Part shown: positions 4,311 to 32,589 of the stretch, one piece after another
Numbering within the stretch: the first letter of the stretch is position 1
Layout of the letters: each line of letters opens with the position of its first letter
NCBI GenBank assembly: GCA_963790045.1
Contig: CAWBMS010000008.1
Location: 133,126 to 197,125 of the forward strand
From: Ignavibacteriota bacterium
GTDB taxonomy: Bacteria; Bacteroidota; Ignavibacteria; UBA10030
Length of the DNA stretch: 64,000 nucleotides
Direction of reading: 5' to 3'
Position numbers and translations under genes: made by a program
The notes under the pieces: model-generated
Told to the model about the DNA's origin: nothing
Databases searched by the model: none
The model's input: only the letters and a program-made list of their open reading frames with translations

Positions 4311-5798
4311 TTATAAAAATTTCACCGCAAAATATTCTTTCAATCGCGCAGCGGCAATGCGTTCCTGCTGCATGGAGTCGCGTTCACGCACGGTGACCGT
4401 TTGATCCTGCAACGTCTGTGAATCCACCGTAATGCAGAATGGCGTTCCTGCTTCATCTTGCCGTCGATAGCGCCGCCCAACGGCTCCACTATCATCATAG
4501 AATACACGGAATTGATTTCGCAGATCCGCTTCGATTTTGTGCGAAAGTTCCGGCATTCCGTCGCGATTGACAAGCGGAAAGATTGCCGCTTTGATTGGCG
4601 CAAGTTTCGGATGCAGTTTGAGGACTACACGAGTTTCAGTTGCACCTTCTTCTGCTGTCGGTGCTTCTTCTTCGTGATACGAAGCGGTCAGGAAAGCCAT
4701 GAACGAGCGGCTCGCGCCCGCAGATGTTTCGATCACGAATGGCGTGTATTTTTCTTTCGTCTCTTCATCGAAATATTTTAACGACTTGCCGGAAAATTCT
4801 TCGTGCCGCGAAAGATCGAAATTCGTACGGTTGTGCACTCCTTCAATTTCTCCCCAGCCGAACGGGAACAAAAATTCGATGTCATAGGCATCCTTCGCAT
4901 AATGCGCTAATTTATCTTTGGGATGTTGATGCCATTGTAGTTGTTCGCGCTTCATGCCGAGATCGACAAACCACTGCATACGTTCGCCGCGCCAGTATTC
5001 AAAAAATTGATCGTCAGTTCCCGGCTTGCAAAAGAATTGCATTTCCATTTGTTCGAATTCGCGCGTGCGGAACAAAAAGTTTTTCGTATTGATCTCGTTG
5101 CGGAATGCTTTTCCGATCTGCGCAATACCGAACGGCAATTTCTGGCGCGATGCATTCATCACGTTCTGGAAATTCACGAAAATCCCCTGCGCTGTTTCAG
5201 GACGAAGGAACACCACCGACGATGCATCCTCCACCGGGCCGACAAATGTCTTGAACATGAGATTAAACTTGCGTGCGTCGGTGAACGTGCCTTTATTGCC
5301 GCACGCGGGACACGAAAGCATCGGAACGATCTTTGCTGCCTGCTCATCGGTTGCCGTCAATGCTGCAAATTCCGATGCAATGAATTCATCTTTCTGCTGT
5401 CCGCCGTACTTTTGCGCATCGATCTCTCGCAACACATCTTTTTTCTTCTTTAAGGACATTTCGTCAAACAGCACATCGATGCGATAGCGCGCTTTGCACT
5501 GCTTGCAATCTACCATCGGGTCGGTAAAATTCTCGACATGTCCGGATGCTTCCCACACGCGTGGGTGCATCAGAATCGATGCATCGATGCCTTCCACGTT
5601 CTCGCGGTAGGTCATGCTCTTCCACCATTGCTGTTTCAAATTGTTCAGCATCTCTACGCCAAGCGGGCCGTAATCCCAGCAGCCGTTCAAGCCGCCGTAA
5701 ATTTCGCTGGATTGAAATACAAAGCCGCGCCGTTTTGCCAGCGAGACAATTTTATCCATCACCTTTACTTGATCGTTATTCGATTTATTCTGTGCCAT
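4311..5798 (-). CDS. glyQS: glycine--tRNA ligase (class II dimeric GlyRS)
   Basis: The N-terminus MAQNKSN...FVFQSSEIYGGLNGCWDYGPLGVE is diagnostic. The start is set at the internal ATG at 5798. Confidence 0.9.
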   Translation of the reverse strand: MAQNKSNNDQVKVMDKIVSLAKRRGFVFQSSEIYGGLNGCWDYGPLGVEMLNNLKQQWWKSMTYRENVEGIDASILMHPRVWEASGHVENFTDPMVDCKQCKARYRIDVLFDEMSLKKKKDVLREIDAQKYGGQQKDEFIASEFAALTATDEQAAKIVPMLSCPACGNKGTFTDARKFNLMFKTFVGPVEDASSVVFLRPETAQGIFVNFQNVMNASRQKLPFGIAQIGKAFRNEINTKNFLFRTREFEQMEMQFFCKPGTDDQFFEYWRGERMQWFVDLGMKREQLQWHQHPKDKLAHYAKDAYDIEFLFPFGWGEIEGVHNRTNFDLSRHEEFSGKSLKYFDEETKEKYTPFVIETSAGASRSFMAFLTASYHEEEAPTAEEGATETRVVLKLHPKLAPIKAAIFPLVNRDGMPELSHKIEADLRNQFRVFYDDSGAVGRRYRRQDEAGTPFCITVDSQTLQDQTVTVRERDSMQQERIAAARLKEYFAVKFL

Positions 5799-5838
5799 AA
5801 TCTTTAACCTTTTACCTTCCAAATTCTAACTTCTAATC

Positions 5839-6903
5839 TTAAACCACTTCCACCCTGCTCTGATCGCCGATCATAAAGCGATGCACCTGCGGCTTACCTG
5901 CGGCTTTCACGATTTCCACGTCATTGCCAAGAATGCTTCCTTCGATTCGCAATCCCACTTTAGAAATTTTGCAATCACGCAAGATGATGCTGTATTCCAC
6001 TTCGCTGTCTTCGATGACCGTTCGATCTCCGACCGATGTGAACGGACCGACATAACTGTTTTCAATCACACAATTTTTACCGATGATGACGGGGCCGCGC
6101 ACGATGCTGTTGATGATCTTTGCGCCTTCTTCGATCACGACGCGTCCCGCGACGTTAGAGTGTGCATCGATTTTGCCATCAATACGCGGATCGATGTTAT
6201 CTAAGATCAATCGATTGGCTTCGAGTAAATCCACGGGCTTACCGGTATCTTTCCACCAGCCGGTAATTTCCGTGTAACCGACTTTGTAGCCCTTCTTGAT
6301 TAAATACGTGTGTGCATCAGAAATTTCTAGTTCACCGCGATCACTCGCTTTGATATTTTTTACCGCTTCAAAAATATGTTTGTCGTACAGATAAATTCCT
6401 GCAACAGCAAAATTGCTTTTGGGCTTCTTCGGTTTTTCTTCTACGCGAAGAATCCTGCCGTTTTTTATTTCAGGAACACCGAAGCGTTCCGGATCTTTCA
6501 CACGCGACAAGGTTAAATAGCAGTTGCAGCCGCTCTGTTCAAATTCTTCCACGAACCGTTTAATGCCGCCCACCAGCATGTTGTCGCCAAGATAAAATAC
6601 AAATTTATCGTCGCCGACAAATTTTTCTGCAAGCTGCACCACCTGCGCCAAACCGCCGGGCACTTCCTGCGGAATGTACGTGATCTTCACGCCCCAGCGC
6701 GAACCATCGCCGACATAGTTTGGCACTTCCAAACTATCTGCCGTATGCACAATGCCAATTTCTTTGATACCGGCATTCACTGCCGCTTCAATGGCATAAT
6801 ACAATATCGGTTTGTTGGCAATGGGAATGAGATGTTTATTTTGTGTATGCGTAATGGGGCGCAATCTCGTTCCGCGTCCGCCGCTTGCAATCAGTGCTTT
6901 CAC
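5839..6903 (-). CDS. sugar-phosphate nucleotidyltransferase, long-form glucose-1-phosphate thymidylyltransferase-like with C-terminal hexapeptide repeats
   Basis: It has the GGRGTRLRPIT motif at the N-terminus and left-handed beta-helix repeats at the C-terminus. Confidence 0.75.
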   Translation of the reverse strand: MKALIASGGRGTRLRPITHTQNKHLIPIANKPILYYAIEAAVNAGIKEIGIVHTADSLEVPNYVGDGSRWGVKITYIPQEVPGGLAQVVQLAEKFVGDDKFVFYLGDNMLVGGIKRFVEEFEQSGCNCYLTLSRVKDPERFGVPEIKNGRILRVEEKPKKPKSNFAVAGIYLYDKHIFEAVKNIKASDRGELEISDAHTYLIKKGYKVGYTEITGWWKDTGKPVDLLEANRLILDNIDPRIDGKIDAHSNVAGRVVIEEGAKIINSIVRGPVIIGKNCVIENSYVGPFTSVGDRTVIEDSEVEYSIILRDCKISKVGLRIEGSILGNDVEIVKAAGKPQVHRFMIGDQSRVEVV

Positions 6904-10552: not shown

Positions 10553-11143
10553 ATGATGAACGTTGATACCATACAAATAGAGGAATCGTTACCGCGCATA
10601 AAATTCGCATGCAATGTGAATGCATGCCGCGGTGCGTGCTGTACGCTTCCCGGCGGACTGGGCGCGCCGCTGCTCGATGAAGAATTAGCAGAAATTGATA
10701 AAGCATTGCCCATCGTCGAATCGATGCTGCCAAGCGAACATCGCGATGTTATTTATCAGCACGGAAAATACGAAGGCACATCCGGTTCGTACACAACCAT
10801 GTGCATCAATCATCATGCATGCATATTCGTTTTGTATGAAAACGGCGTTGCAAAATGCGCGTTTGAAAAAGCATATTTCGAGAAAAAACTTTCTTGGCGT
10901 AAACCGATTTCATGCCAGCTTTTTCCCATTCGTGTCGATCGCGGATGGACGCAGCGCTTGCGATATGAACGAATCTCGGAATGCGATCCGGCAATCGAGA
11001 ACGGCATCGACAACAATATTTTTTTAGACGATTTTTTAAAAGACGCGTTGATACGCGCTTATGGCGAACGATGGTACCGGCAATTCAAAGAAGTCTGCGA
11101 ATGGCATCGTGCGCAAGGCAACAAGTTTTTATTCAACCAATGA
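10553..11143 (+). CDS. cysteine-rich conserved hypothetical protein (DUF3109-like)
   Basis: It has a CNVNACRGACC cysteine cluster. Its stop overlaps the rpoN start (ATGA). Confidence 0.45.
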   Translation: MMNVDTIQIEESLPRIKFACNVNACRGACCTLPGGLGAPLLDEELAEIDKALPIVESMLPSEHRDVIYQHGKYEGTSGSYTTMCINHHACIFVLYENGVAKCAFEKAYFEKKLSWRKPISCQLFPIRVDRGWTQRLRYERISECDPAIENGIDNNIFLDDFLKDALIRAYGERWYRQFKEVCEWHRAQGNKFLFNQ

Positions 11144-12602
11144 TCAATCTTCAACAACAACTTCGTCTCGGGCTTAAGCTCACTCCGCAGCAAATTCAAT
11201 ATTTAAAATTGCTGCAATTACCGACGCTTGCCTTGGAACAGCGTATTAAATTAGAATTAGAAATGAATCCGATGTTAGAGTTGAGCGAAGAACAGGAACC
11301 GACTCTGGAACAAGAAGCACCGGAGACCGATTCCCAGGAGGATGAAGAGGTTCAAGCAAAACAAGAAGAAGACAAAGTCAAGCAAGAAGAAGACAGTTAT
11401 ACGCTTGACGATTATATGAACGACGATCTTGCAGGATTCAAAAGCCCCGAGACAACAAAAAACAGTAATGATGACGACGAATCCTACGAATCCCCTTTGC
11501 CGTCCACGATTCCGTTAACCGAACGATTACTGAGTCAATTCCGTTTTCTTTCCATCGATGACGAAGACATTCTTCTTGCTGAAGAAATATTGGGGAATGT
11601 CGATGAGGATGGATATCTCCGGCGGGAATTAGAACTCATCGTTCAGGATCTAAATTTAAGTTTCGGATTGAACATCAGCGTGGAAAAAGCAACCGCTGTT
11701 CAGCAAAAAATCTTGCACTCGATCCGCCCGGTATCGCCGCACGCAATCTTCAAGAGTGTTTGGTCGTGCAGCTTAAAGCCAGCACACAGCCGCAGGCGCT
11801 CAAAGAACTCGCCATCAAAATTCTCACCACATATTTTGAAGATTTCAAATTGAAGCGCTTCGATAAGCTTGAAAAGAATATCGGTGTCAGTCATGACACA
11901 TTTAAAAAAGCAGTTGAACTCATTCAACATTTAAACCCCAAGCCCGGCGAAGGCGAATTTTCCGTACAAGAGAACTATATCATCCCTGATTTTATCGTCG
12001 AGAAAGATGAAGATGATTTCATCATTACGCTGAACGACCGTAATATTCCACCGCTGCATCTTAACAATGCATACAAAGAATTGGTGACGCCGAAAGGAAA
12101 AAATGTCTCCGCGGAAGCAAAAGATTTTGTCAAGAAAAAATTTGAATCAGCCAAGTGGTTTATTGCTTCCATCCATCAACGGCGCGAAACACTTTTAAAA
12201 GTCATGAGAGTCATTGTGGAAAAACAGCGGCTGTGGTTCACTGAAGGTGAAATATTAAAACCGATGATTTACAAAGATATATCTGAAGTTGTTGGCGTGG
12301 ATATTTCCACCATTAGCCGAGTGGTGAATAGCAAATATGTTCAGACAGAATTCGGCGTACACTCGTTGCGTTTCTTTTTCACATCGGGATTGGAATCTGA
12401 AGGCGGCGATGATGTCTCAAACCAAGAAGTGAAACAGCGCGTTCGGGATATTATTGCTGCCGAAGAATCAAAGCATCCGCTCAACGATGATAAGATTGCC
12501 GAGATGTTAAAACAAAGCGGCTTGCACATCGCTCGACGCACGGTTGCAAAATATCGCGAACAATTGGGGCTACCTATTGCTCGTCTTAGAAGAAAAGTAT
12601 AA
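11140..12602 (+). CDS. rpoN: RNA polymerase sigma-54 factor RpoN, with an apparent -1 frameshift in an A6 run (11705-11710)
   Basis: The N-terminus MINLQQQLRLGLKLTPQQIQYLKLLQLPTLALEQ is the sigma-54 region I. The core motif LDPPGIAARNLQECL continues in frame 0, and an RpoN box (ARRTVAKYRE) lies at the C-terminus. Adding one A to the A6 run restores a single ORF reading VQQKNLALDPPG. Confidence 0.85.
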
Positions 12603-21485: not shown

Positions 21486-23534
21486 TTACCAGATTTTTAT
21501 CTGCACACTATCTGCACGATACATCGGTTCACCGGATTGAATGCCGAACGTCGAATAAAATTCCGGCATATTGACCAATGGCCCGTTCACGCGGAACTTC
21601 GCCGGCGAATGTTCGTTGCTGCGCACCTGATTCGCCGTCATTTCCGGACGCTCGTTCACCATCCATCCAAGTGCATACCCAAGGAAAAATCGTTTGTCTG
21701 GATTTAATCCCGCAAGCGATTCATGATTTTTGTATTGATTCGTTTTCTTGAATGCCTCGTACGCCATCATCGTTCCGCCAAGGTCGGCAATGTTCTCACC
21801 TTGCGTCAATTCGCCGTTAATGTGCAAACTATCGACAGCAATATAACCGTTAAATTGCCGGACGATCATTTTTGTTTTTGCCGTGAACTTGATACTATCG
21901 TCCATCGTCCACCAGTTGTTCAAATTTCCCGATGCATCGTATTTACATCCCTGGTCATCGAAGCCGTGTGTAATTTCATGCCCAAACGTTGCGCCGATAA
22001 TCGAATACAGCAGCGCATCGTCCGCCAGCACATGTTCGTAGCCGGGAATAATAATATTGCAGCCGGGAATCACGATCTCGTTGTTGGAAGGATTATAATA
22101 CGCATTGTACGTTTGCGGCGTCATATCCCATTCCGTACGATCAACGGGCTTGCCGTATTTCGCAATCATATAATGGAACGCCCACGCATTTGCGTTAATG
22201 CCGTTATGCACATACGAAGATCGGTCGATCTTCATACTGCTCAAGTTTTTCCATTTATCGGGGTAACCGACTTTCATCACAATCGCATCGAGTTTCTTCA
22301 GCGCTTTTACTTTTGTCGCATCGCTCATCCAATCCAATGTTTTGATGCGTTCGGTATATACTTCTTTAATGGCTTTACCGATTTCAACTAATTTCGCTTT
22401 TGTTCCTTTCGGAAGATAATCCGACACATACACCTGTCCGATTAATTCTCCGAGCGACCCATCGGTTTGTTCCACCACGCGCTTCCATCGTGGTTTAGGT
22501 TCTTGCACTCCGCGTAACGTACCGGAATAGAAATTGAATGTTTCGAGATACGTTTTGTCATCTAAATATCGTGCAAGTCCGCGCACAAGATGATACTTAA
22601 GGTAATCTTTCCAATCGGCAAGCGGAACGGTTTTCAAATATCCATTGAGCGCTTCAAGAAATTCCGGTTGACCGACGATAACCGTATCCACTTTTTGCAA
22701 TCCGACGCCATCGATGAAAGTTGTCCAGTTGAGGTTCGCGGTGGATGCTTGCAATTGTTTGAAGGACATCTTGTGATAATTGGTAAGCGGATCGCGCGTG
22801 TCTTCCCGCTTGCGCATGACGCCGGCAAGCGCTGTTTCTAATTTCATCATGCGTTCGGCAGATTGTTTTGCCTGCGCATCATTGTAGCCAATAATTTTGA
22901 ACATGCGTTCAACGTGTTCCACAAATTTTTGCCGGATAGCGATGGCGCGTGCATCGGTATCAAAATAATAATTGCGATCCGGCATGCTGATACCGCCCTG
23001 CCAGATAAAGATTGCATTTTTACTGCTGATCTTATCGTCCTGCCCTACGCCGAATGAAAACATCGGATCGCCGGAAACGACATGCACATACGCAGCCGTT
23101 TGTAACAAATCATTGACAGATTTTATTTCATCGATCCTCTTCAAATCGTAGTGCAGCGGTTTCAATCCATTTTTATTCAATGCAACGCTATCCATGCCGG
23201 TGAAAAAGAAATCGCCGATCTTTTGTTTGTTGCTTCCTTTCGCTGCATGCTTCAACGCCGACAACGATTCACACAAATTCCGAATCTGTGCGTTGATCGT
23301 ATCCTGTATAATCTGCCAGATACCGTTGCTCTGCTCGCTGGCAGGAATTGGATTTTCTTTAAACCATTTTCCGTTGGCATATAAAAAGAAATCTGTTCCC
23401 GGCTTCACCGTCGTATCGATATGAGCAACTAAGGGATCGACCCAGAGCGTGTTGTTTGTTGTTTGACCGAACACCAGAGATGGAATGAAGATCAACATTA
23501 TTCCGATGGAACAATGAACGATTCGTTTTTTCAT
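21486..23534 (-). CDS. pepO: M13 family zinc metallopeptidase (PepO/neprilysin-like)
   Basis: It has the HEITHGFD zinc motif, is 682 aa long and has a signal peptide. Confidence 0.9.
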   Translation of the reverse strand: MKKRIVHCSIGIMLIFIPSLVFGQTTNNTLWVDPLVAHIDTTVKPGTDFFLYANGKWFKENPIPASEQSNGIWQIIQDTINAQIRNLCESLSALKHAAKGSNKQKIGDFFFTGMDSVALNKNGLKPLHYDLKRIDEIKSVNDLLQTAAYVHVVSGDPMFSFGVGQDDKISSKNAIFIWQGGISMPDRNYYFDTDARAIAIRQKFVEHVERMFKIIGYNDAQAKQSAERMMKLETALAGVMRKREDTRDPLTNYHKMSFKQLQASTANLNWTTFIDGVGLQKVDTVIVGQPEFLEALNGYLKTVPLADWKDYLKYHLVRGLARYLDDKTYLETFNFYSGTLRGVQEPKPRWKRVVEQTDGSLGELIGQVYVSDYLPKGTKAKLVEIGKAIKEVYTERIKTLDWMSDATKVKALKKLDAIVMKVGYPDKWKNLSSMKIDRSSYVHNGINANAWAFHYMIAKYGKPVDRTEWDMTPQTYNAYYNPSNNEIVIPGCNIIIPGYEHVLADDALLYSIIGATFGHEITHGFDDQGCKYDASGNLNNWWTMDDSIKFTAKTKMIVRQFNGYIAVDSLHINGELTQGENIADLGGTMMAYEAFKKTNQYKNHESLAGLNPDKRFFLGYALGWMVNERPEMTANQVRSNEHSPAKFRVNGPLVNMPEFYSTFGIQSGEPMYRADSVQIKIW

Positions 23535-23689
23535 GATACGTTCCTTTGTAAGTTTTTTTCATGTTGTATTTTAAAATATAAAAAAAGAACGAAGGATGCC
23601 AAGGTACACGGTCAAAGAAGAAATGGGAACCGTGAAAGCACATTGTCTATTTCCATCTCTATTATGCTGTGAGGAAAATGCTTAATCTT

Positions 23690-24010
23690 TCCCCGAATGG
23701 CTTTTCCCCTGCTCGTGCATGTTTTTCCTTCACAATTTTTATAAAAAGTTCATGCGTCTGTGCTTTCGCCCTTCTCCCGAACGTAATTTCCCAACGCCCA
23801 ATATCATTTTCCCTTCTCTTTTTTGTAATTATTTTACACCGGATGGCTTTTTCCTAATCCCGATTACAATTTCCCAACCCACGGACGGCGTTTCCCTTCT
23901 CCCGAACGCGTTTTCCCATCCCCCGACTGGTTTTTCTCTTCTCTTTTTTGTAAAAATTTCAGCCCGAACGTCTTTTCCCTAATCCCGGACATTCATTTTT
24001 TGCCCCCGTG
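23690..24010. repeat. degenerate tandem repeats (units of about 25-30 nt, CCCGAACG...TTTTCCC)
   Basis: The motifs cccgaacg / tttccc(t/a) recur in the non-coding tract upstream of the REP cluster. Confidence 0.5.
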
Positions 24011-24027
24011 GAGGTATTTCCCTGAAT

Positions 24028-24257
24028 GTGACCGTCACCCACTCCGTTTAATCTAAGCTGGTGACGGTCACATGCTCTGTTCTCAATTCGTGACCGTCAC
24101 CTACTCCGTCTAAGCCAAGCTGGTGACAGTCACATGCTCTGTTCTCGATTCGTGACATTCACCTACTCCGTTTAAGCCAAGCTGGTGACGACCACACCCC
24201 CGGCTTAAATTGTGACCGTCACTCGCGCTGTTTTAGCTTGGTAAGTGATGGTCACAT
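24028..24257. repeat. REP palindrome array (GTGACCGTCAC / GTGACGGTCAC alternating, about 4 units)
   Basis: Perfect 11-nt palindromic cores alternate in orientation at spacings of about 30 nt. Confidence 0.8.
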
Positions 24258-24267
24258 AATCCTTTTG

Positions 24268-24843
24268 TTACGAAAAAATATATTTCTCTATTTTGTATTT
24301 ATCCTCCGCCTGATACAATTCAACAAATTGTTGATACGTATTATTTTGAGAGAACTGTTCCAATACAATTTCCGGATGGATGAATTGTATCGGTATATCT
24401 CCGTAATATTCTTTGCAACTGCTAAATTGCCAATGCTGTGGCTGGGAAACAAGTTTCGCCCGAACAGGATTCAGATGGATATACCGCGAAAGATGAAGAA
24501 GATACTCGTTCTCTTCAATCTGTCGTAATTTATATTTTCCATCGAACAAATGCCCCGTCCGCTGCTGTTCCAAATTAACGGCCTTCACATATCCGTTACA
24601 AAGTTTTGCAATAAATTGCGACAACCCGTTTGCGTCGAGTTGTTGAAGAATGAAATGATAATGATTGGGCATAAGACAGTAGGCGATCATTTTGACAGCA
24701 GCTGGAGCGAGTGCATTTTGCATGCGTTCGAGGAACATTTGATATTGGTAGGGATGGAAAAATATAGAAGAATGATTGTTACCACGATTATACACATGGA
24801 AGTAAGAATCAACAGAAGCAAGATATTTTGTTTTGATGGACAT
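24268..24843 (-). CDS. REP-associated tyrosine transposase (RAYT, IS200-like Y1/HUH)
   Basis: It has the HUH motif CLMPNHYHFIL and a conserved Tyr region, and is flanked on both sides by GTGACCGTCAC REP arrays. Confidence 0.8.
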   Translation of the reverse strand: MSIKTKYLASVDSYFHVYNRGNNHSSIFFHPYQYQMFLERMQNALAPAAVKMIAYCLMPNHYHFILQQLDANGLSQFIAKLCNGYVKAVNLEQQRTGHLFDGKYKLRQIEENEYLLHLSRYIHLNPVRAKLVSQPQHWQFSSCKEYYGDIPIQFIHPEIVLEQFSQNNTYQQFVELYQAEDKYKIEKYIFS

Positions 24844-24870
24844 CGACTAAATCTCCTCACCTGCTCATCT

Positions 24871-25180
24871 GTGACCGTCACCTACTCTGTTCAAGCTTAG
24901 CTGGTGACGGTCACATGCTCTGTTCTCAATTCGTGACATTCACCCACTCCGTTTAATCTAAGCTGGTGACGGTCACATGCTCTGTTCTCAATTCGTGACC
25001 GTCACCCACTCCGTTTAAGCCAAGCTGGTGACAGTCACATGCTCTGTTCTCGATTCGTGACCGTCACCTACTCTGTTCAAGCTTTGCCGGTGACGGTCAC
25101 ACTCCACCGGCTTAGCTCGTGACCGTCACTTGCTCTATTTCAACTTGGTAAGTGACGGTCACATGATCCGGTCACATAAC
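24871..25180. repeat. REP palindrome array, same family as 24028-24257 (about 5 units)
   Basis: It has the same GTGAC(C/G)GTCAC cores. Confidence 0.8.
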
Positions 25181-25182
25181 AT

Positions 25183-25911
25183 CTATTTTTTTGTCGTATC
25201 TGTCGATGGAGATGTAGATGAGGATGTATTGCCCTTGTCGTCCGTCTTTTTGGATTTATGCGGCGGGGCGGTGTAGCGCGTTTTTCTTGCTGTTTCTAAT
25301 TTGGCAAGAAGATCGGGCTTGCCTTCAAACGCCAGAGTTGCGGCATTCTGGAAAGCATCGGCAAGCGTAATGGTTGCTTCGATGGAGGCATCGAACGCTT
25401 CAGTGGCTTGCTTCGCATCCGTTTTGCATTCCTCCTGCACTTTGTTAGCGGCGGTAAGCGCAACGCTATCGGTTTGCAGCGCCGCAATATCCGCAGGCAG
25501 CACGCCCTGTTTGGCAAGCCGCTCCTGATACGTCGGGAATCCCTTGCCGTAATCCGACGCCCAGCCGATCAGCACGGGCGAAGATCCCTTATGGTCTTCG
25601 CCCACATGGAAGACTTTTCCTTCCGGACTACTTTTGCCGAACTCCTTCTTCACCGCATTTTTAGTCTTTTTGATGCGGGATGCAACGGGTGTGCGCGCTG
25701 CTTCTTCATTCCGTGTAAGGTTCTTCAATTTTTCGTGGATTACTCCGGCAGCCGACCGCTTCACCTCCATATCTGCTTTTGCCGCCGTGTACTCGGCAAA
25801 CCGGCTTTCGGGAAAACGCTCCGTGAACAGAGCTTTGTTGTCGGTATAAAGAGCTTCTTTCAGATCGTACTCTTCTGCAAGCCCTTCGGAATAAACTGTT
25901 TGTGCTGCCAT
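25183..25911 (-). CDS. hypothetical protein, compositionally GC-rich, embedded between REP arrays
   Basis: The 242-aa ORF has a GGAGGT RBS. Its C-terminus is Ala/Lys/Glu-rich with an S/T/K-rich tail. I recognise no family. Confidence 0.5.
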   Translation of the reverse strand: MAAQTVYSEGLAEEYDLKEALYTDNKALFTERFPESRFAEYTAAKADMEVKRSAAGVIHEKLKNLTRNEEAARTPVASRIKKTKNAVKKEFGKSSPEGKVFHVGEDHKGSSPVLIGWASDYGKGFPTYQERLAKQGVLPADIAALQTDSVALTAANKVQEECKTDAKQATEAFDASIEATITLADAFQNAATLAFEGKPDLLAKLETARKTRYTAPPHKSKKTDDKGNTSSSTSPSTDTTKK

Positions 25912-26043
25912 ACCATACCTCCATAAAATTGATGTGTAAGATTATGAAGGGTCCCCATTTTATTTAAGACGATTCGTGGGGGCCCCGCTTGGTTATGTGA
26001 ATCGTTTGTTTATTTATGCGTGTGTGTTTCCTTTATTTTTTAT

Positions 26044-26115
26044 TTATGCATGTGACCGTCACCTACTCGTGCATGTGACCGTCACTCGCTTTGCGTTGAC
26101 AGAGTTAGTGACGGT
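26044..26115. repeat. REP palindromes (GTGACCGTCAC family), isolated pair
   Basis: The sequence reads gtgaccgtcacctactcgtgcatgtgaccgtcactcgc...agtgacggtcac. Confidence 0.7.
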
Positions 26116-26135
26116 CACAAACTTTGTCCGTTTTC

Positions 26136-26195
26136 TGTAAGGGTTGAAAATTTTCAACCCTTACAAAGTATTGTTCGGGAGATCATCTCCCGAAC
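26136..26195. terminator. two strong stem-loops at the distal end of the CRISPR array (possible array terminator)
   Basis: One has a 13-bp stem (tgtaagggttgaa aatt ttcaacccttaca) and the other a 10-bp stem (gttcgggaga tca tctcccgaac). Neither is followed by a clean U-tract. Confidence 0.35.
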
Positions 26196-26234
26196 AGCGA
26201 GGGCAATTACATCGAATTAAAAGTTACAACGTCT

Positions 26235-26790
26235 GTTTCAACTTCCTTTCAAATGGAATAACTGTCAGCGGCAGAGGCAACAAAAGTTGATTGCGAAACG
26301 TTTCAACTTCCTTTCAAATGGAATAACTGTCAGCATGACTTGCAATGATAACATCGTTTTCTTTGTTTCAACTTCCTTTCAAATGGAATAACTGTCAGCC
26401 ATAAATAATCATCGCTTTGATATTGTACTGTTTCAACTTCCTTTCAAATGGAATAACTGTCAGCACAATTCCGGAGCGGGAAGAACCTATAGCGGTTTCA
26501 ACTTCCTTTCAAATGGAATAACTGTCAGCAGAGGGCAAAGAGAAGAATTGCGATTGCTAGTTTCAACTTCCTTTCAAATGGAATAACTGTCAGCCGCTCA
26601 AGATGTTAAGCCGCTACTTAATCGGTTTCAACTTCCTTTCAAATGGAATAACTGTCAGCATGCTCGAAGTTCTTCTTCGTTCGCGCCTGTGTTTCAACTT
26701 CCTTTCAAATGGAATAACTGTCAGCCGCATAGGTCGTGAGCAACGTTGCTTGTAAGTTTCAACTTCCTTTCAAATGGAATAACTGTCAGC
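26235..26790. CRISPR. CRISPR array with 9 identical 35-nt repeats (GTTTCAACTTCCTTTCAAATGGAATAACTGTCAGC) and 8 unique spacers of 30-31 nt
   Basis: Repeats start at 26235, 26300, 26365, 26430, 26495, 26560, 26625, 26691 and 26756, and all are identical. The spacers are unique and non-repetitive. The minus-strand reading of the repeat ends in GTTGAAAC. Confidence 0.95.
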
Positions 26791-26908
26791 TTAGTACCAT
26801 GCAAATCCCAGTTCTTCATAGGGTTAGAGAATAAATAGTATAGAAATAAACGGGAAGAACGCAGTTTATTGAAGGGGAGATACCAAAAAATCCATTGTAC
26901 TTGGAATT

Positions 26909-26931
26909 GGTGAGTGGGCAAGCCCCTCACC
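26909..26931. ncRNA. stem-loop within the 250-bp cas12-like/array spacer region (candidate tracrRNA or scaffold element)
   Basis: The hairpin ggtgag tgggcaagccc ctcacc lies in the non-coding region between the gene stop (27040) and the array (26790). Confidence 0.25.
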
Positions 26932-27039
26932 TTCCGGATGATGTCGGCGAACGCCGCCATTCTTGCTATATCGGCAGCAAGATGAAACCACCCGTACCGT
27001 CTTCCGTTTTCACAGAAGAAAATGATTCTCTCTTAATTT

Positions 27040-28485
27040 TCAAAGAACAGTGCCGCCAGTATACTTGTGATACCATTCACATTCATCTTTGCGGGTTACC
27101 ACTTTAGTACTTTTGGCTATATTGCATGCGGCATTATAATCCGCATTGACGATTGTATCAAAATTTTTGCACGAGGGATTCTTACATTTAAATTCCGATT
27201 GACTGATACGTTGTTCTTCTGCTTCACTGCCACATTCGGTACATCGCTGGCTGGTATGATACGGATCAATACAGACCACTTCCATTCCTTTGCGGGCAGC
27301 TTTATCTTTGATCATCGTTTGTAATTCAAAGTACGACCAATTACGTAGAACAAAATCTCCCTGCAATGATTTTCCGTTTTCGTCTTTACCGTATCCTTCA
27401 AGAAGTTCTAATTTAATAACACCTGCGCGATACTTTTCTGCGAACTCGATAATGCGTCGCGAAACAGTGTGGTTATAAGTGCGAACAAAATGACGCTCTT
27501 TGTCCTTTAACGCTTCCATAGCTTTCAATTTCTTCCCGCGGCCTTTTCCGCCTTGCGTATTGCGCAAAGCAATTTGTAAATGCTTTCTGCGTTGCTGCAT
27601 TTGTGTACGCACACGTAAGAATTCGTTGCGGCTGCCAATTGCCAGACGGGCAAGCCCATCTGATAATGCACAATATGCCGGAACATTCAAGCCGAGATCG
27701 ACGCCAACCGAACGCGCTGTATCTAATACCAGCTTTTCTTCTTCAAATTTTATTGCGAGCAGTAAGAATATTTTTCTATCCTGCACCTGCATCTGGGAAT
27801 CACACATTTGGTAATCACCGGCAAGCACACGATCCATAATAATTTCGTTGCCACTACGGTCCCGTCCGAACCGTAATTCAAAATTCAACCCTTCTAACCA
27901 ATGCAACAGAACTTTTCCATCCTTCTTTTCAAACCGGAGACTTTCTTTCATAAACGGAATCGGCATGCCTTTTCGGAAACTACTAATTGCTCGTTGACCG
28001 CGGCGAACATCGAGGAGTTCCTTTTTAAACTTATCTACCACCGCATTATTTAATGCAGCTTTAATATAGGAAGGCATATCAGGGAATTCATCGGCAAGCA
28101 TTTGGTAGGTGGAGTTCTTTTCCCCTGTAACATAAAATGCTTCTGCTTCCGTGCGTGCCTCTAATGTTAAAGTGGCTTTTGCTTTGGTAAGTTTCTCTAA
28201 TTTTTTCTGTAATTTTTCTGCCGCGGCTTCGTCGGCTTCTTTCTTTTTTGCTTCTAAAGTTTTTTTATAATCTTCTTTAATTTCCTGCGCCTTTTCGGAA
28301 AGTTTTTCATCTGTCCATACGATTCGTTGTTTGAATGTGTCGTTAAAGTATTGATTGCTAACAATGAGATTTGCTGCACGGAAAACATCGTTGCTTAGTT
28401 GCCGTAAATACCGCCACGCCAAATTACGTTTTTCAGCATCTTGTTCATCTATCCATAATTCTATTTTACGGGTTATGATCGGCAT
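27040..28485 (-). CDS. TnpB/Cas12-like RuvC nuclease (481 aa), a candidate compact type V CRISPR effector
   Basis: RuvC-I is GVDLGLNVPAYCALSDG, RuvC-II is IKLELLEGYGKDENG and RuvC-III is NADYNAACNIAKS. A zinc finger CTECGS...FKCKNPSCKNF lies between RuvC-II and RuvC-III, the same arrangement as in Cas12f/TnpB. A Lys/Glu-rich coiled-coil insertion of about 60 aa follows the N-terminal WED-like region. It has the same orientation as the array and lies 250 bp upstream of it. Confidence 0.8.
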   Translation of the reverse strand: MPIITRKIELWIDEQDAEKRNLAWRYLRQLSNDVFRAANLIVSNQYFNDTFKQRIVWTDEKLSEKAQEIKEDYKKTLEAKKKEADEAAAEKLQKKLEKLTKAKATLTLEARTEAEAFYVTGEKNSTYQMLADEFPDMPSYIKAALNNAVVDKFKKELLDVRRGQRAISSFRKGMPIPFMKESLRFEKKDGKVLLHWLEGLNFELRFGRDRSGNEIIMDRVLAGDYQMCDSQMQVQDRKIFLLLAIKFEEEKLVLDTARSVGVDLGLNVPAYCALSDGLARLAIGSRNEFLRVRTQMQQRRKHLQIALRNTQGGKGRGKKLKAMEALKDKERHFVRTYNHTVSRRIIEFAEKYRAGVIKLELLEGYGKDENGKSLQGDFVLRNWSYFELQTMIKDKAARKGMEVVCIDPYHTSQRCTECGSEAEEQRISQSEFKCKNPSCKNFDTIVNADYNAACNIAKSTKVVTRKDECEWYHKYTGGTVL

Positions 28486-28526
28486 ACTGCATGCTTCCGT
28501 GTTAAATTATTTCTTTGTCTCTTCAT

Positions 28527-28608
28527 CTCACTCCGCCGACTTCCCCAAACGCACTCCTTGGAGAAGCACATTATATCCAACCGTTTTAAACTTGCTGTAA
28601 AGTTACAT
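28527..28608. repeat. copy A of an 80-bp conserved element, located 40-120 bp upstream of the cas12-like start
   Basis: It is near-identical to 29667-29747, which lies upstream of the RAYT gene. It contains gttttaaacttg, resembling the 5' end of the CRISPR repeat (gtttcaacttcc), and on the minus strand a TATAAT-like box (ggatataatg). Confidence 0.7.
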
Positions 28609-28914
28609 GAACGCCTTATTAAAAGCAAATAAATTACTTCTGCTTCGATCATAATATTGTATTTCCCAATAATCCATTATCCTCATGCCTGCGCTCGGTA
28701 TCGGTTGCCCAACATTGAATGTCCTCACCATGAATTTAATTCATTGCTCCATGTTGTGGGCACGTTCCGCCAAATAGACTGCGGATAAACGCAACGTGCC
28801 CCTGCCGATTTTAATCAATACAACAATATTCTGAAAATAATTTTCCATCGTAGGGACGTGATTCATCACGTCCATTTTATTTATTATATCCCTTTCTTGC
28901 ATCACGTCCTCATA

Positions 28915-29010
28915 ACGAATTTATGAATCAAATTAATGGATTTGATGAATCAAATTAATGGATTTGATAAATCAAATTAATGGATTTGATGAATCAAATC
29001 CCTACGATGA
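28915..29010. repeat. tandem array of a 22-bp unit containing the perfect palindrome GGATTTGATGAATCAAATCC (about 4 copies)
   Basis: The unit aatggatttgatgaatcaaatt is repeated. It overlaps the 3' end of the RAYT ORF, and a further copy occurs at about 29340-29380 inside the ORF. Confidence 0.7.
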
Positions 29011-29643
29011 TATATCTGCGTTGAACAATCGTTGTACACTGTCGGGATGTTCATGATCCATTGCCCACATCACAGGGTTTCCGGCAATATATTTACGAAT
29101 GTTGTTCAATTCTTTATCGCTGCGAATAACATGTTCGTAGAAACGGGATTGCCAACGGAAATTATCATATCCCGCATCGTGAATAAATTTCGTCGTCCGC
29201 GCTTTATAATGGCGAACAATTTTACCTAAGGTCAATTTTGGATTTTTCATCAATCCCCATTCATTCGTAGGGACGTGATTTATCACGTCCTGATTTATAT
29301 CCGCATGATTAACCACGTCCGAATGGTTCATCGCATCCCCGTTTAGGATTTGATGAATCAAATCCCTACGATGGTCATATTCCAACAATACCAATATTCC
29401 ATGAACGTGATTGGGCATTATGATATATTCATCCAATTGCACATTTGCAAAATGTTTTGTTATATCGTTCCAACAACGCTCTGCAATTATTCCAATCGGC
29501 AACAAATGGATTGCTTCGTCATTTATTTCACCAAACATATTTTCATGATTATGCGTGCAAATCGTAATAAAATATCCGCCCGGCATCGAGTAGTCGTACT
29601 CTTTTAATCGAATGGATTTTCTCTGACAACGTGTTGCAATCAT
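29002..29643 (-). CDS. REP-associated tyrosine transposase (RAYT, IS200-like Y1/HUH), third family
   Basis: It has the HUH motif IIMPNHVHGILVL and the conserved RWQSRFYEHVIR (Y-motif) region. It is flanked by GGGACGTGAT..ATCACGTCCC palindromes at about 28850-28880 and 29270-29300. Confidence 0.8.
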   Translation of the reverse strand: MIATRCQRKSIRLKEYDYSMPGGYFITICTHNHENMFGEINDEAIHLLPIGIIAERCWNDITKHFANVQLDEYIIMPNHVHGILVLLEYDHRRDLIHQILNGDAMNHSDVVNHADINQDVINHVPTNEWGLMKNPKLTLGKIVRHYKARTTKFIHDAGYDNFRWQSRFYEHVIRSDKELNNIRKYIAGNPVMWAMDHEHPDSVQRLFNADISS

Positions 29644-29666
29644 CGTATGTATCTCTTTGTTTTTAT

Positions 29667-29747
29667 TCCACCGACTTCCCCAAACGCACTCCTTGGAGAA
29701 GCACTTTGTATCTACCTAACCGTTTTAAACTTGGTTTAAAGTTACAT
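29667..29747. repeat. copy B of the 80-bp conserved element, upstream of the RAYT gene
   Basis: It is about 90% identical to copy A (28527-28608). Confidence 0.7.
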
Positions 29748-29989
29748 TATCAAATATTAAAACGCAAGGGGAAGAAGAGAAAAGAGGCAATTGCTATGAA
29801 TTTTTTAGGGAATCAGGTAGAAACATAACCAAAATAGGTTTGAGTAAACAGTTTCAGAAGGTTCTCTTCACGACGATTAAACCGATATTCAACGTCTTTC
29901 GTTGTGCGCAAAATCCCTGATGCAAGCCCACAACGTGAAGAACTCTATAAAAAAGAAAAGGCAGTCACAAAAGTTGTGACTGCCGAGAG

Positions 29990-30062
<73 letters not shown>

Positions 30063-30289
30063 ATCATTATATACATTAATATAACGATTGCTTGCCCCGT
30101 AATCAAGGTAATTCTTTTTTCATTTTTTGCATCATTTCCTCATCATTCTTCCATTGACTTCTCAAATAACCTTTGCGATATTATCGCCACGAAATATTGT
30201 TTAGTTCAAAGCTTTTGCTTTGGAACCTGCCCGGCTGCTGCCATCAAGTGCAACGGCGGCAGATCTACAAACCAGTTTTAGGAGTTCCT

Positions 30290-31619
30290 ATGAAACGGAC
30301 CAGAGTCATTATTATGGGCGCCGCGGGACGGGACTTCCACAATTTCAATACCGTCTTCCGCATAGACGACCGATACGAAGTCGTCGCTTTCACCGCAACA
30401 CAAATTCCCAACATCGATGGACGCAAGTACCCGGCAGAACTTGCCGGTGCATTGTATCCGCACGGCATTCCCATTTTTCCCGAAACGGAATTAACGCGCC
30501 TCATTAAAGAGATGCATGCCGATGAAGTGATCTTTGCTTACAGCGATGTTCCCTTTCAGTATGTGATGAGTAAGGCAGCGCTTGTGATGGCGGCAGGCGC
30601 TGATTTCAAAGTTCAAGGTGCGGCGCCAACGATGTTGAAAAGTAAAGTTCCGGTAATTGCCGTTGTTGCCGTGCGAACCGGAGCCGGCAAAAGTCAAACG
30701 TCGCGTAAAGTGTGTAATATTTTGAGAGCCGCGGGAAAACGTGTTGTGGCAATCAGGCATCCGATGCCGTACGGAGATTTGGTAAAGCAAAAAGTGCAGC
30801 GGTATTCTTCGTTAGAAGATTTGAAAACGTACGAATGCACAGTAGAAGAAATGGAAGAATACGAACCGCATATCGTGAACGGCACGATGATTTATGCCGG
30901 TGTTGATTATGAAGCGATCTTACGGCAAGCGGAACAAGAAGCCGATGTGATCGTGTGGGATGGCGGCAATAACGACATGTCATTCTATCAACCCGATCTC
31001 ACTATTCTCGTCGCCGATCCCCATCGTCCCGGGGCATGAAATTTCCTATTATCCCGGCGCCGTTAATTTATATCTTGCAGATGTGGTCATCATCAACAAA
31101 GTGGAAACGGCAGCACGTGAAAACATCGATGCTGTTCGAAAAAATATCGTTACAATCAATCCGAAGGCAGTCATCATCGAAGCAGCTTCACCCATTACGG
31201 TGGATGATGAATCCATCATTCGCAATAAACGTGTGCTCGTTGTGGAAGATGGTCCAACGCTCACACACGGCGAAATGACATACGGCGCAGGAGTGGTTGC
31301 CGCGCGTATGTTCGGCGCAAAAGAACTTGTCGATCCACGGCCGTGGGTTGTAAATTCTATTGCTGAAACTTTCCAAAAATATCCGCACATTGGTATATTA
31401 CTGCCTGCGATGGGCTATGGTGGAAAACAAATCAAAGATTTGGAAACCACCATTAATCGTGTTGAATGCGATTCGGTAATCATCGGCACGCCGATCGATC
31501 TGCGCCGCATCATCAACATCAACAAACCGTCCACGCGTGTGCGATATGAATTAGATGAAATTGCAAAGCCCGATTTGCACGACATCCTGCAAACATTTTT
31601 ACAGAAACACGGATTGACA
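30290..31619 (+). CDS. P-loop NTPase with an N-terminal Rossmann-like domain (DUF1611 / cyclic-2,3-diphosphoglycerate-synthetase-like), with a +1 frameshift at GGGG 31031-31034
   Basis: It has [10 protein letters not shown] at the N-terminus and a [12 protein letters not shown]-loop. Two ORFs (30290-31039 and 30960-31622) rejoin as ...[14 protein letters not shown] if one G is removed. Confidence 0.45.
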
Positions 31620-31640
31620 TAACTTGAAGGAGAGCTACAC

Positions 31641-32589
31641 ATGAAACGAGATTTTCTAAGTATCAACGATTGGTCCACCAAAGAGCTGTTGGAAGTTTTA
31701 AAAATTTCCCGGCAAATGAAAGCCAATCCAAAAAAGTTTTCCAAAGCGCTTGCCGGAAAATCAGTCGCATTGATTTTTGAAAAACAATCGCTGCGCACGC
31801 ACGTAACGTTTGAAATCGGTGCAAAGCAAATGGGAGCGAACACCACATACCTCACGAATGCGGACATCAGTCTGGGCAAACGCGAAACGATCTATGATGT
31901 GGCAAAAAATTTGGAACGCTGGGTGGATGCTGTCGTCATCCGTACGTATGCGCAGCAAAATGTTGTCGAGCTTGCCAAGTTACGGTTCTCATGTCGTCAT
32001 CAATGCGCTGACGGATCACGAACATCCATGTCAAGCAGTTGGCGATTTCATGACCATACAGGAACATCTTAAAACATTCAAGGGGAAAAAATTTGTATGG
32101 ATCGGCGATGGCAACAATGTCTGTCATTCGTTGATGCTGCTTGCGGCAAAAGTCGGAATGAATTTTACTGCTGTTACACCGCCGACACATAAACCGGATA
32201 CACAGGTTGTTGCGGCTGCAATCGAAGAGGCAAAAAAGACAGGCGCTGTTATTGAAATCATTCACGATCCGGTTGCCGGCGCAACAAATGCCGATGTGAT
32301 TTATACAGATGTCTGGATTAGCATGGGACAGGAAGCCGAACGTGAAACAAAGATGCAGGCGTTTCGTGCATATCAAGTGAATGCAGATTTGATGAAGCGT
32401 GCAAAACCGACCGCCATCTTCCTGCATTGTTTACCGGCACATCGCGGTGAAGAAGTTACCGCAGCTGTGATCGACTCTCCGCAATCAGCAGTGTTTGATG
32501 AAGCGGAGAATCGCCTGCATTCTCAAAAGGCAATTTTGTATTACGCATTGCAGAAAAGCAAGCGCAGTAAGAAATTACGTCGCAGATAA
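31641..32589 (+). CDS. argF: ornithine carbamoyltransferase, with a +1 frameshift near 31977
   Basis: It has the SLRTHVTFE (STRTR) and HCLPAHRGEEV (HCLP) motifs. The frame switches at aagttacgg, and removing one T gives ELAKYGSHVVINALTDHEHP. Confidence 0.85.

Follow-up and report, generated by a model that had tools for sequence, protein, structure and literature searches.

A probable stand-alone type V-F CRISPR-Cas locus with an extended-REC Cas12f in an uncultured Bacteroidota chromosome

The window (the whole 64-kb stretch of DNA that was analysed) contains a gene for a miniature type V-F effector, followed by a predicted tracrRNA and a CRISPR array. The features of the locus, all on the minus strand, are listed below in the direction of transcription.

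27040..28485, minus strand: cas12f gene, an intact ORF with an ATG start, encoding a type V-F effector of 481 aa
28132..28308, minus strand: Lys/Glu/Ala-rich antiparallel helical hairpin of REC, residues 60-118 (alpha2 60-82, alpha3 86-118)
27697..27699, minus strand: RuvC-I catalytic Asp263, in the motif GVDLGLN (residues 261-267)
27406..27408, minus strand: RuvC-II catalytic Glu360, in the motif IKLELLEG (residues 357-364)
27169..27243, minus strand: TNB zinc finger CxxC...CxxxxC (CTEC...CKNPSC; Cys415, 418, 434 and 439), between RuvC-II and RuvC-III
27139..27141, minus strand: RuvC-III catalytic Asp449, in the motif NADYNAACNIA (residues 447-457)
26888..27006, minus strand: predicted tracrRNA of ~115 nt, directly after the cas12f stop codon, with conserved structure and covariation
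26791..26887, minus strand: leader separating tracrRNA and first repeat, its sequence not conserved among loci
26235..26790, minus strand: CRISPR array of 9 identical 35-nt repeats with 8 unique spacers (30-31 nt)
26172..26196, minus strand: terminator-like hairpin directly past the last repeat (consensus match only)

The cas12f product falls within the size range of miniature Cas12f proteins (about 400-700 aa), and its RuvC domain is split (I, II, III), with a zinc-finger/TNB insert separating RuvC-II from RuvC-III, as is typical of the single, TnpB-derived effectors of type V-F. It begins with a WED strand (residues 3-12) and REC helices (17-161), continues as WED/RuvC from residue ~176, and ends with the TNB zinc finger (415-439) and RuvC-III (447-457). 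The original prediction had named the three RuvC motifs and the CxxC...CxxxxC finger; all were recovered, with the D263, E360, D449 triad intact. The protein has more than 1000 homologs, and residue conservation was counted over 52 aligned ones: E360, D449 and all four zinc-finger cysteines are invariant (52/52), and position 263 is Asp, as in the window protein, in 43 homologs and Asn in the other nine. The conserved motifs predict that the window protein is an active nuclease.

Matches of the gene to Pfam, NCBIfam and PDB families are far beyond chance. Pfam PF07282 (Cas12f1-like_TNB) covers residues 385-456 (8e-16), and the NCBIfam model guided_TnpB is matched at 2.8e-48 (165 bits vs a cut-off of 100). 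The NCBIfam Cas12f2 model (NF049972) gives 118.5 bits, below its curated cut-off of 450; the protein passes only the general guided_TnpB model and is not of the Cas12f2 type. An exact look-up of the protein in public assemblies returned no record, its 100%-identical cluster representative lies only on one 2-kb Logan contig, and the best match among GTDB representative genomes is 72% identical.

The closest structures are those of Cas12f proteins. In a phmmer search of the PDB the best match was Al3Cas12f (9NZO/9NZR; 1.3e-93, residues 4-467), followed by CnCas12f1 (8HR5; 2e-70) and further Cas12f proteins, with much weaker TnpB entries. Identity to Al3Cas12f by BLASTP is 39%, end to end. An AlphaFold check with Foldseek, as proposed in the original prediction, likewise placed the protein nearer to Cas12f than to canonical TnpB: the top four PDB matches of the AF2 monomer model (pLDDT 89 overall) were Al3Cas12f or CnCas12f1 chains (E ~1e-32), AsCas12f came next, and ISDra2 TnpB scored 6e-11 with a TM of 0.30. 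The best 14 phmmer and best 24 Foldseek matches were all Cas12f or dCas12f structures, and Cas12p, g, m, k and TnpB scored far below Cas12f in both searches.

The Lys/Glu-rich insertion was the main point of the original prediction, which described a charged helical segment of ~60 aa in the place of Cas12f-type REC insertions. This description agrees with the AF2 model, in which helices span residues 17-58, 60-82 and 86-118; the quoted Lys/Glu string corresponds to residues 70-117, and the hairpin of residues 60-118 (pLDDT 86-92) lies after helix alpha1 and the WED strand of the N-terminus. Lys and Glu make up 44% of the hairpin vs 20% of the entire protein. The hairpin aligns with Al3Cas12f residues 68-120, where two conserved anchors, FND..R and (E/Q)NSTY, flank it. 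Its length is 54-91 aa in most of the 52 homologs and ~34 aa in six (P0072-type); measured from anchor to anchor (query residues 55-125), the segment has 71 aa vs 58-66 aa in Alistipes-type homologs. The published hallmark of Al3Cas12f and CnCas12f1, the latter described as having "large extended alpha-helices", is a pair of long helices (alpha2 and alpha3) that enlarges the REC domain; in Al3Cas12f these helices contact the NTS in one protomer and the gRNA's stem 2 in the other (Guan et al., PMC13186708). By the definition in that paper, the AF2 helices and the collinear alignment to the Al3Cas12f REC place the window protein in the extended-REC lineage, and the modelled insertion is, on this evidence, the extended REC hairpin already published for Al3Cas12f and CnCas12f1. 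As the hairpin has been described in these relatives, the window system is considered a new ortholog of a known type rather than a new type of system.

Al3Cas12f of Alistipes sp. is an obligate dimer that recognizes a T-rich PAM, cuts dsDNA and shows high native editing in human cells, where it beat OsCas12f at 6/8 loci (Guan et al., Nat Struct Mol Biol 2026, PMC13186708). The window protein resembles the Al3Cas12f / Cas12f-MG119 family in size (481 vs 488 aa), domain order, RuvC triad, CCCC finger and the enlarged REC with an alpha2/alpha3 hairpin in the equivalent position. The guide RNAs are also alike: in both, the loop of a 5' hairpin pairs with the 3' end of the repeat, a further stem follows, the anti-repeat at the 3' side is short, and the tracrRNA lengths are similar (~115 nt vs 113 nt). 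The two differ in that the extra tracrRNA hairpins of the window lie inside the pseudoknot loop and not in stem 2, in the longer anchor segment, in the separate branches of the tree (see below), in the low identity of the proteins, and in some residues of the dimer interface. As read from the BLASTP alignment, R49 and Y62 of the Al3Cas12f interface are replaced by Leu and Gln, whereas Y60 and R63 correspond to Phe and Arg, a conservative and an identical position.

CnCas12f1 of Clostridium novyi (497 aa; Su et al., Nat Chem Biol 2024), whose title, as cited in PMC13186708, gives a C-rich PAM, shares the long extended REC helices and a Lys/Glu-rich region that aligns with that of the window protein (Foldseek 3e-32); however, it is of Firmicutes origin and its N-terminal ~95 residues align weakly. 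The short-REC orthologs (E values between 1e-20 and 1e-56), which are of the same subtype, match in the RuvC/TNB core, which aligns from residue ~126-149 onward with AsCas12f (7WJU/8J12), OsCas12f (9NZQ) and RhCas12f (9NZP) and from residue 211 onward with Un1Cas12f1 (7C7L/7L48). They lack the alpha2/alpha3 extension, and no sequence alignment to them is obtained for the N-terminal ~125-150 residues of the window protein (~210 in the case of Un1Cas12f1). These orthologs are tracrRNA-dependent and form asymmetric homodimers. Canonical TnpB proteins, in contrast, are monomers of ~400 aa with a single omega-RNA, encoded by transposons without a CRISPR array; ISDra2 (8H1J) and ISFba1 (8IAZ) share the ancestral fold of WED, small REC, RuvC and zinc-finger/TNB, but the similarity is much lower than to Cas12f (ISFba1 phmmer 4e-6). 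Finally, the dCas12f-sigmaE protein of Flavobacteriia (9N9C), from the same phylum, is homologous over residues ~4-404 (30-32% identity, phmmer 3e-45). Such dCas12f proteins are C-terminally truncated, miss part of the RuvC site, mostly lack arrays and have a sigma-E partner (Hoffmann et al., PMC13472631), whereas in the window the protein is of full length, its active site is intact and an array accompanies it.

The tracrRNA was located by comparison of related loci. A search for the anti-repeat by RNAduplex (repeat vs 45-nt windows around the gene) gave best energies of -22.4 kcal/mol (plus strand, leader) and -22.2 kcal/mol (coding region); since these matches were indistinguishable, the approach was dropped in favour of the comparative analysis. 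In the resulting model a closing stem CGGGUG/CAUCCG encloses the loop GUUUCA and two variable hairpins, and is followed by the stem GGUGAG/CUCACC, the 3' anti-repeat AAUGGA and a U-run. The loop is complementary to the repeat 3' end UGAAAC, and the anti-repeat to UCCAUU of the repeat. Of 20 related loci, most have a match to the covariance model, R1, directly 3' of the gene; 94% of the cells are paired vs 34-48% in slid controls, and compensatory changes were found in 24 of the 27 pairs. Moreover, across the related loci, changes in the loop and the 3' tail are matched by changes in each locus's own CRISPR repeat, and seven different loop hexamers fit their own repeat ends: GUUUCA/UGAAAC, GUUGCA/UGCAAC, GUUGUA/UACAAC, CUUGUA/UACAAC, GGCCCA/UGGGUC, GGCUCA/UGAGUC and AUCUCA/UGAGAC. 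Conserved structure and co-variation with the repeat thus argue, by computation, for base pairing between a tracrRNA and the repeat, as in type V-F; the ends and expression of this RNA are predicted. Natural minimal tracrRNAs of ~70 nt occur in two related loci (L005 and L085). R1 had no match in Alistipes loci at E<=1, and an Rfam search of positions 23500-30500 (E<=1) returned only tRNA-Met and chance matches, with no known family over the tracrRNA.

The array, which the original prediction had assumed in referring to a native array, starts 250 nt 3' of cas12f, adjacent to the effector gene as in type V-F systems, and its repeats, in the direction of transcription, read GCTGACAGTTATTCCATTTGAAAGGAAGTTGAAAC, with the 3' part UCCAUUUGAAAGGAAGUUGAAAC. 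The minus-strand orientation was assigned because of the type V-like 3' end ...GTTGAAAC, the pairing with the tracrRNA, the degenerate distal repeat in related locus L001 and the terminator-like hairpin after the array. The concatenated spacers had no match among phages and, among plasmids, nothing beyond one chance match at E=0.9; searches of IMG/VR with the initial 20 nt of every spacer (eight in all) returned nothing. Spacer matches were also absent from the window at up to 7 mismatches and from all fetched related loci at up to 5 mismatches.

No Cas1 gene, nor any other cas gene of Cas1 size, was found in the 64-kb window (Pfam or NCBIfam on flanking ORFs and all ORFs of at least 250 aa). 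The ORFs scanned with Pfam/NCBIfam, which outside 24-32 kb included part of the small ones, contained neither Cas2 nor Cas4. Next to cas12f there is no gene for a sigma-E or HTH partner. Two Y1_Tnp-like genes (24268-24843 and 29002-29643) lie 2.2 kb and 0.5 kb from cas12f; their products score best as REP-associated tyrosine transposases, and REP-like palindrome arrays are found around them. Several housekeeping genes are split in the assembly, and these splits look like long-read indel errors, not pseudogenisation.

The order gene-tracr-array recurs in L001 (Bacteroidota, 72% identical), L003 and L005; in L007 the tracr is present and only two repeat-like copies were found. The genomic contexts of the homologous loci differ and the gene-tracr-array unit is kept. 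In a simple, rough NJ tree the window protein groups with P0002, P0003 and P0005 in a branch of environmental Bacteroidota and Ignavibacteria sequences, apart from the branch of Al3Cas12f, P0119, P0105 and P0084. In the same tree the nine homologs with Asn at the RuvC-I Asp position form a monophyletic sister subclade. The motifs QYFND and ITRKIEL, conserved in the N-terminal region of the window subclade, are not in the sequence list of PMC13186708. By the tree, the identity, these motifs and the tracr model, the window protein lies outside the narrow Al3Cas12f clade (gut Alistipes-type, Cas12f-MG119-3-like) and, judged from sequence, is assigned to an environmental sister subclade of Al3Cas12f.

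Taken together, this minus-strand locus of an uncultured Bacteroidota chromosome is very probably a stand-alone type V-F system, made up of an extended-REC Cas12f, a tracrRNA and an array of nine repeats. Its CRISPR-associated effector could instead act mainly as an RNA-guided DNA binder or regulator, or as a nickase, comparable to Cas12m or to the dCas12f relatives frequent in Bacteroidota, rather than as a double-strand nuclease. The sister subclade with Asn in RuvC-I, the truncated flavobacterial homologs (PMC13472631), the missing adaptation genes and the lack of identifiable foreign spacer targets are in line with such a function; however, we consider it unlikely, given the three catalytic carboxylates and complete TNB zinc finger of the window protein, the absence of an adjacent sigma-E or HTH gene and of spacer matches within the window at up to 7 mismatches, and the fact that the nearest characterised relatives are efficient nucleases. 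It is very unlikely that cas12f and the array are remnants, in decay or already inert, whose expression or function has been lost: there is no adaptation module, the spacers have no matches and housekeeping genes are split, but the ORF is intact and aligns with homologs over 98% of its length, the nine repeats are identical, every conserved tracrRNA stem is retained, and the splits resemble long-read indel errors. Finally, it is hardly credible that the gene is a transposon-borne IS200/IS605 tnpB with an omega-RNA and with its TnpA encoded by the Y1-transposase-like neighbours, for, although NCBIfam goes no further than "RNA-guided endonuclease TnpB family" in naming the protein, public labels of homologs read "IS605 OrfB transposase" and Y1_Tnp-like genes lie on both sides, the gene is followed by an array with unique spacers in an order kept among homologs in unrelated contexts, the downstream RNA is predicted to pair with the repeat in trans like a tracrRNA, the nearest structures by Foldseek are Cas12f and not TnpB, and the Y1 genes, RAYT-like, with REP arrays and at some distance, are not in the IS605 arrangement.

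In the proposed type V-F system, the tracrRNA would pair with the crRNA repeat at two sites, AAUGGA/UCCAUU and GUUUCA/UGAAAC (a pseudoknot), a step that the comparison of sequences supports. By homology to the characterised relatives Al3Cas12f and CnCas12f1, two Cas12f protomers may join asymmetrically on a single guide RNA via their REC domains, and the Lys/Glu-rich alpha2-alpha3 hairpin (60-118) would make the surface for dimer and nucleic-acid contacts larger. By the same homology, once a PAM has been recognized and an R-loop has formed, a single RuvC site (D263, E360, D449), backed by the CCCC finger, would cut both strands of the invader DNA. More tentatively, and with less than even probability, the window protein and its relatives could represent an environmental extended-REC subclade (Bacteroidota/Ignavibacteria) set apart by a slightly longer hairpin, by a tracrRNA layout of its own, with variable hairpins nested in the pseudoknot loop, a 6-bp anti-repeat and the natural ~70-nt versions, and by the lack of an adaptation module.

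To our knowledge, no CRISPR nucleases with demonstrated genome-editing activity are smaller than Cas12f proteins. Since the efficient editor Al3Cas12f belongs to the extended-REC lineage, an ortholog of 39% identity whose guide RNA has been predicted in full (tracrRNA, repeat and pairing scheme) is a ready-to-test editing candidate. The comparative data also give a tracrRNA model, supported by covariation, that covers the environmental subclade as a whole. In its biology the locus is an ordinary, stand-alone chromosomal type V-F system that raises no new question, and its main value lies in the genome-editing toolbox: should its PAM, guide needs or dimer stability differ usefully from those of Al3Cas12f and CnCas12f1, it may offer a new compact editor scaffold. 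The Asp-to-Asn sister clade could record a stepwise path from a nuclease to an array-guided DNA binder.

The ORF at 27040-28485 (reverse strand) is intact, starts with ATG and comprises 481 codons, being untouched by the frame breaks seen in three other genes of the window. Its translation contains every motif quoted in the original prediction, which described an effector with the complete RuvC triad and a REC-like charged insertion.

Predicted guide RNA and protein motifs (residues from the translation of the window ORF)
26888-27006, reverse strand: predicted tracrRNA, from comparative analysis of related loci
Residues 70-117: Lys/Glu string quoted in the original prediction
Residues 261-267: RuvC-I, GVDLGLN, Asp263
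Residues 357-364: RuvC-II, IKLELLEG, Glu360
Residues 415-439: CTEC...CKNPSC, between RuvC-II and RuvC-III
Residues 447-457: RuvC-III, NADYNAACNIA, Asp449

Pfam identifies a Cas12f1-like TNB domain (8e-16), and NCBIfam assigns the protein to the RNA-guided TnpB family (2.8e-48, above the family cut-off). Glu360, Asp449 and the four cysteines do not vary across an alignment of 52 sequences, and position 263 is Asp in 43 of them and Asn in nine. The window protein itself has Asp263; given this conservation, it is reasonable to predict a cleavage-competent enzyme.

In a sequence search covering all PDB chains, the top matches were Al3Cas12f structures 9NZO and 9NZR (E=1.3e-93, residues 4-467, the Lys/Glu region included; 39% full-length pairwise identity), followed by CnCas12f1 (8HR5, 2e-70) and then RhCas12f, nuclease-dead Cas12f, AsCas12f, OsCas12f, SpCas12f1 and Un1Cas12f1, while the bona fide TnpB ISFba1 reached merely 4e-6. 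Alignments with short-REC orthologs begin only at about residue 126-149 (about 211 for SpCas12f1 and Un1Cas12f1); therefore, the first ~125-150 residues are peculiar to the long-REC proteins. AlphaFold2, given 52 homologs, yields a confident model (mean pLDDT 89), and Foldseek against PDB again placed Al3Cas12f and CnCas12f1 chains first (E 3e-32 to 5e-30) and AsCas12f next; with ISDra2 TnpB at 6e-11 and TM 0.30, the protein is distinguishable from a canonical TnpB.

The stretch at residues 60-118, with a Lys+Glu content of 44% vs 20% overall, is modeled as an antiparallel two-helix hairpin (alpha2 and alpha3) within REC, since the model has a strand at 3-12 followed by helices 17-58, 60-82, 86-118, 122-133 and 139-161. 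Between conserved anchors (query residues 55-125), this segment is 54-91 aa long in 46 of the 52 homologs, 22 of which have exactly the 71 aa of the window protein, and 33-36 aa in the other six; its sequence varies, its richness in K/E/R/D/Q/A being constant. The pattern of length and composition fits a helical arm of structural, not catalytic, function. The same extended-REC architecture, in the same position, has been published for Al3Cas12f, a two-protomer complex in which REC alpha2/alpha3 touch the non-target strand and the gRNA stem 2 hairpin (Guan et al., Nat Struct Mol Biol 2026; PMC13186708). Thus, the observation of the insertion and its REC-like interpretation are supported, but the distinctiveness claimed for it is not new.

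The CRISPR array (26235-26790) contains nine identical 35-nt repeats, GCTGACAGTTATTCCATTTGAAAGGAAGTTGAAAC on the strand of the gene, whose ...GTTGAAAC end is characteristic of type V, and unique spacers of 30-31 nt that matched no phage, plasmid or IMG/VR sequence, nor the window itself. The last repeat is followed by a terminator-like hairpin. Just past it lies a perfect 30-nt palindrome (26136-26165, TGTAAGGGTTGAAAA/TTTTCAACCCTTACA), which includes GGTTGAAAA, similar to the repeat 3' end AGTTGAAAC, and may serve as a terminator in both directions. The arrangement of gene, ~250 nt spacing and 9-repeat array recurs at the closest public homolog (72% identity, Bacteroidota MAG), where the repeat is related, its distal copy is degenerate and no cas1, cas2 or cas4 is called nearby. 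An array lies shortly past the gene in about two-thirds of the ~40 nearest loci taken from species-representative genomes.

A conserved block immediately past the stop codon emerged when the DNA between gene and array was compared for the window and related loci L001 (the 72%-identical one), L003, L005 and L007. In the RNAalifold prediction, the stem CGGGUG/CAUCCG closes around the loop GUUUCA and a pair of variable hairpins, the stem GGUGAG/CUCACC comes next, and the 3' end is a single-stranded tail of AAUGGA plus a U-run. In most of 20 related loci, a covariance model of four input sequences places the element directly on the 3' side of the cas12f-like gene; in the alignment fitted by the model itself, 94% of paired cells can pair, vs 34-48% with partners slid, and 24 of 27 pairs have compensatory changes. 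The loop hexamer co-varies with the final six bases of the repeat of its own locus in seven distinct combinations (including GUUUCA/UGAAAC, GUUGCA/UGCAAC, GGCCCA/UGGGUC and AUCUCA/UGAGAC), and the 3' tail does so with a stretch inside the repeat (window: AAUGGA/UCCAUU; L001: GAAUGGAG/CUCCGUUU; L007: AACGA/UCGUU; L062: an 11-bp duplex). The predicted RNA would thus combine two-site repeat:anti-repeat pairing with a pseudoknot, as in known Cas12f guides. The experimentally validated Al3Cas12f sgRNA has the same layout: there, the GUUGGA loop of the hairpin pairs with UCCAAC at the end of the repeat, and 3' UUCACUUGA with UCAAGUGAA. Natural "minimal" tracrRNAs of about 50-70 nt occur in L005 (1550-1618) and L085 (5492-5544), without the pair of hairpins inside the pseudoknot loop and still matching their own repeats; they suggest how short the guide scaffold of the subclade could go.

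In a rough NJ tree the window protein groups with environmental Bacteroidota and Ignavibacteria sequences (P0002, P0003, P0005, P0007 and others), apart from the gut Alistipes branch including Al3Cas12f. The tracrRNA covariance model had no match in Alistipes loci, and two motifs conserved in the N-terminal region of the window protein's subclade do not occur among the sequences that the Al3Cas12f paper (PMC13186708) lists. The protein is therefore a new ortholog in a known lineage with solved structures, and belongs to a sister subclade not yet characterised.

Nine homologs of 474-494 aa (P0033, P0037, P0041, P0043, P0048, P0049, P0057, P0058 and P0066), monophyletic in the NJ tree, replace the RuvC-I Asp by Asn (VGVNLG) and retain the RuvC-II Glu, RuvC-III Asp and zinc finger. 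The one locus of this group looked at, L086, has two degenerate CRISPR-like arrays (2796-3300 and 5643-6070), and the same minimal tracr core stands in identical copies ahead of both. The group may be a naturally nuclease-attenuated, array-guided subclade, and may be the array-associated dCas12f cluster that PMC13472631 mentions. For the Flavobacteriia relatives (L061, L066-L082; Chryseobacterium, Elizabethkingia, Maribacter and others), the alignment is confined to query residues ~4-404 at 28-33% identity and the fetched flanks contain no array, consistent with the C-terminally truncated, sigma-E-associated dCas12f of Hoffmann et al. (PMC13472631).

The window is chromosomal, encoding GlyRS, HslU, GlmM, PolX, sigma-54, PRPP synthetase, ribosomal protein L25 and four tRNAs. 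Its HslU has a 100%-identical counterpart on an ENA metagenome contig and a 94%-identical one in a "Bacteroidota bacterium" MAG. Cas1 was not found among ORFs of at least 250 aa, nor Cas2/Cas4 among the ORFs scanned, and none of the genes immediately beside the cassette is a cas gene. The cassette is flanked by Y1 transposase genes at 24268-24843 and 29002-29643 (both reverse strand); being RAYT-like and accompanied by REP-like palindrome arrays, they are not an IS605 TnpA/TnpB pair. Tandem GTGACCGTCAC palindrome arrays with 62-nt and 124-nt periods surround the former gene, and 3.7 copies of a 22-nt tandem repeat ATTTGATGAATCAAATTAATGG lie just 3' of the stop codon of the latter; together with the genes (regions 24028-25165, 26047-26119 and 28919-29643), they look like REPtrons. 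The interval from the array to the first RAYT gene holds a 242-aa Ala/Lys/Glu-rich ORF (25183-25911, reverse strand) with no Pfam match and only a weak, sub-threshold NCBIfam match to the "PQLLE family" (1.5e-9, 38 bits, cut-off 80). Three genes (sigma-54 rpoN, an unannotated gene and ornithine carbamoyltransferase; 10981-12602, 30173-31622 and 31641-32589) are each interrupted by a frame change that leaves a pair of overlapping ORFs; indel errors in a long-read metagenome assembly are the most likely cause, not pseudogenisation.

As the charged REC extension is already known from Al3Cas12f, the window adds an ortholog to the family, not a new distinctive feature. Its value is modest and chiefly practical: a candidate compact nuclease with a fully predicted guide.
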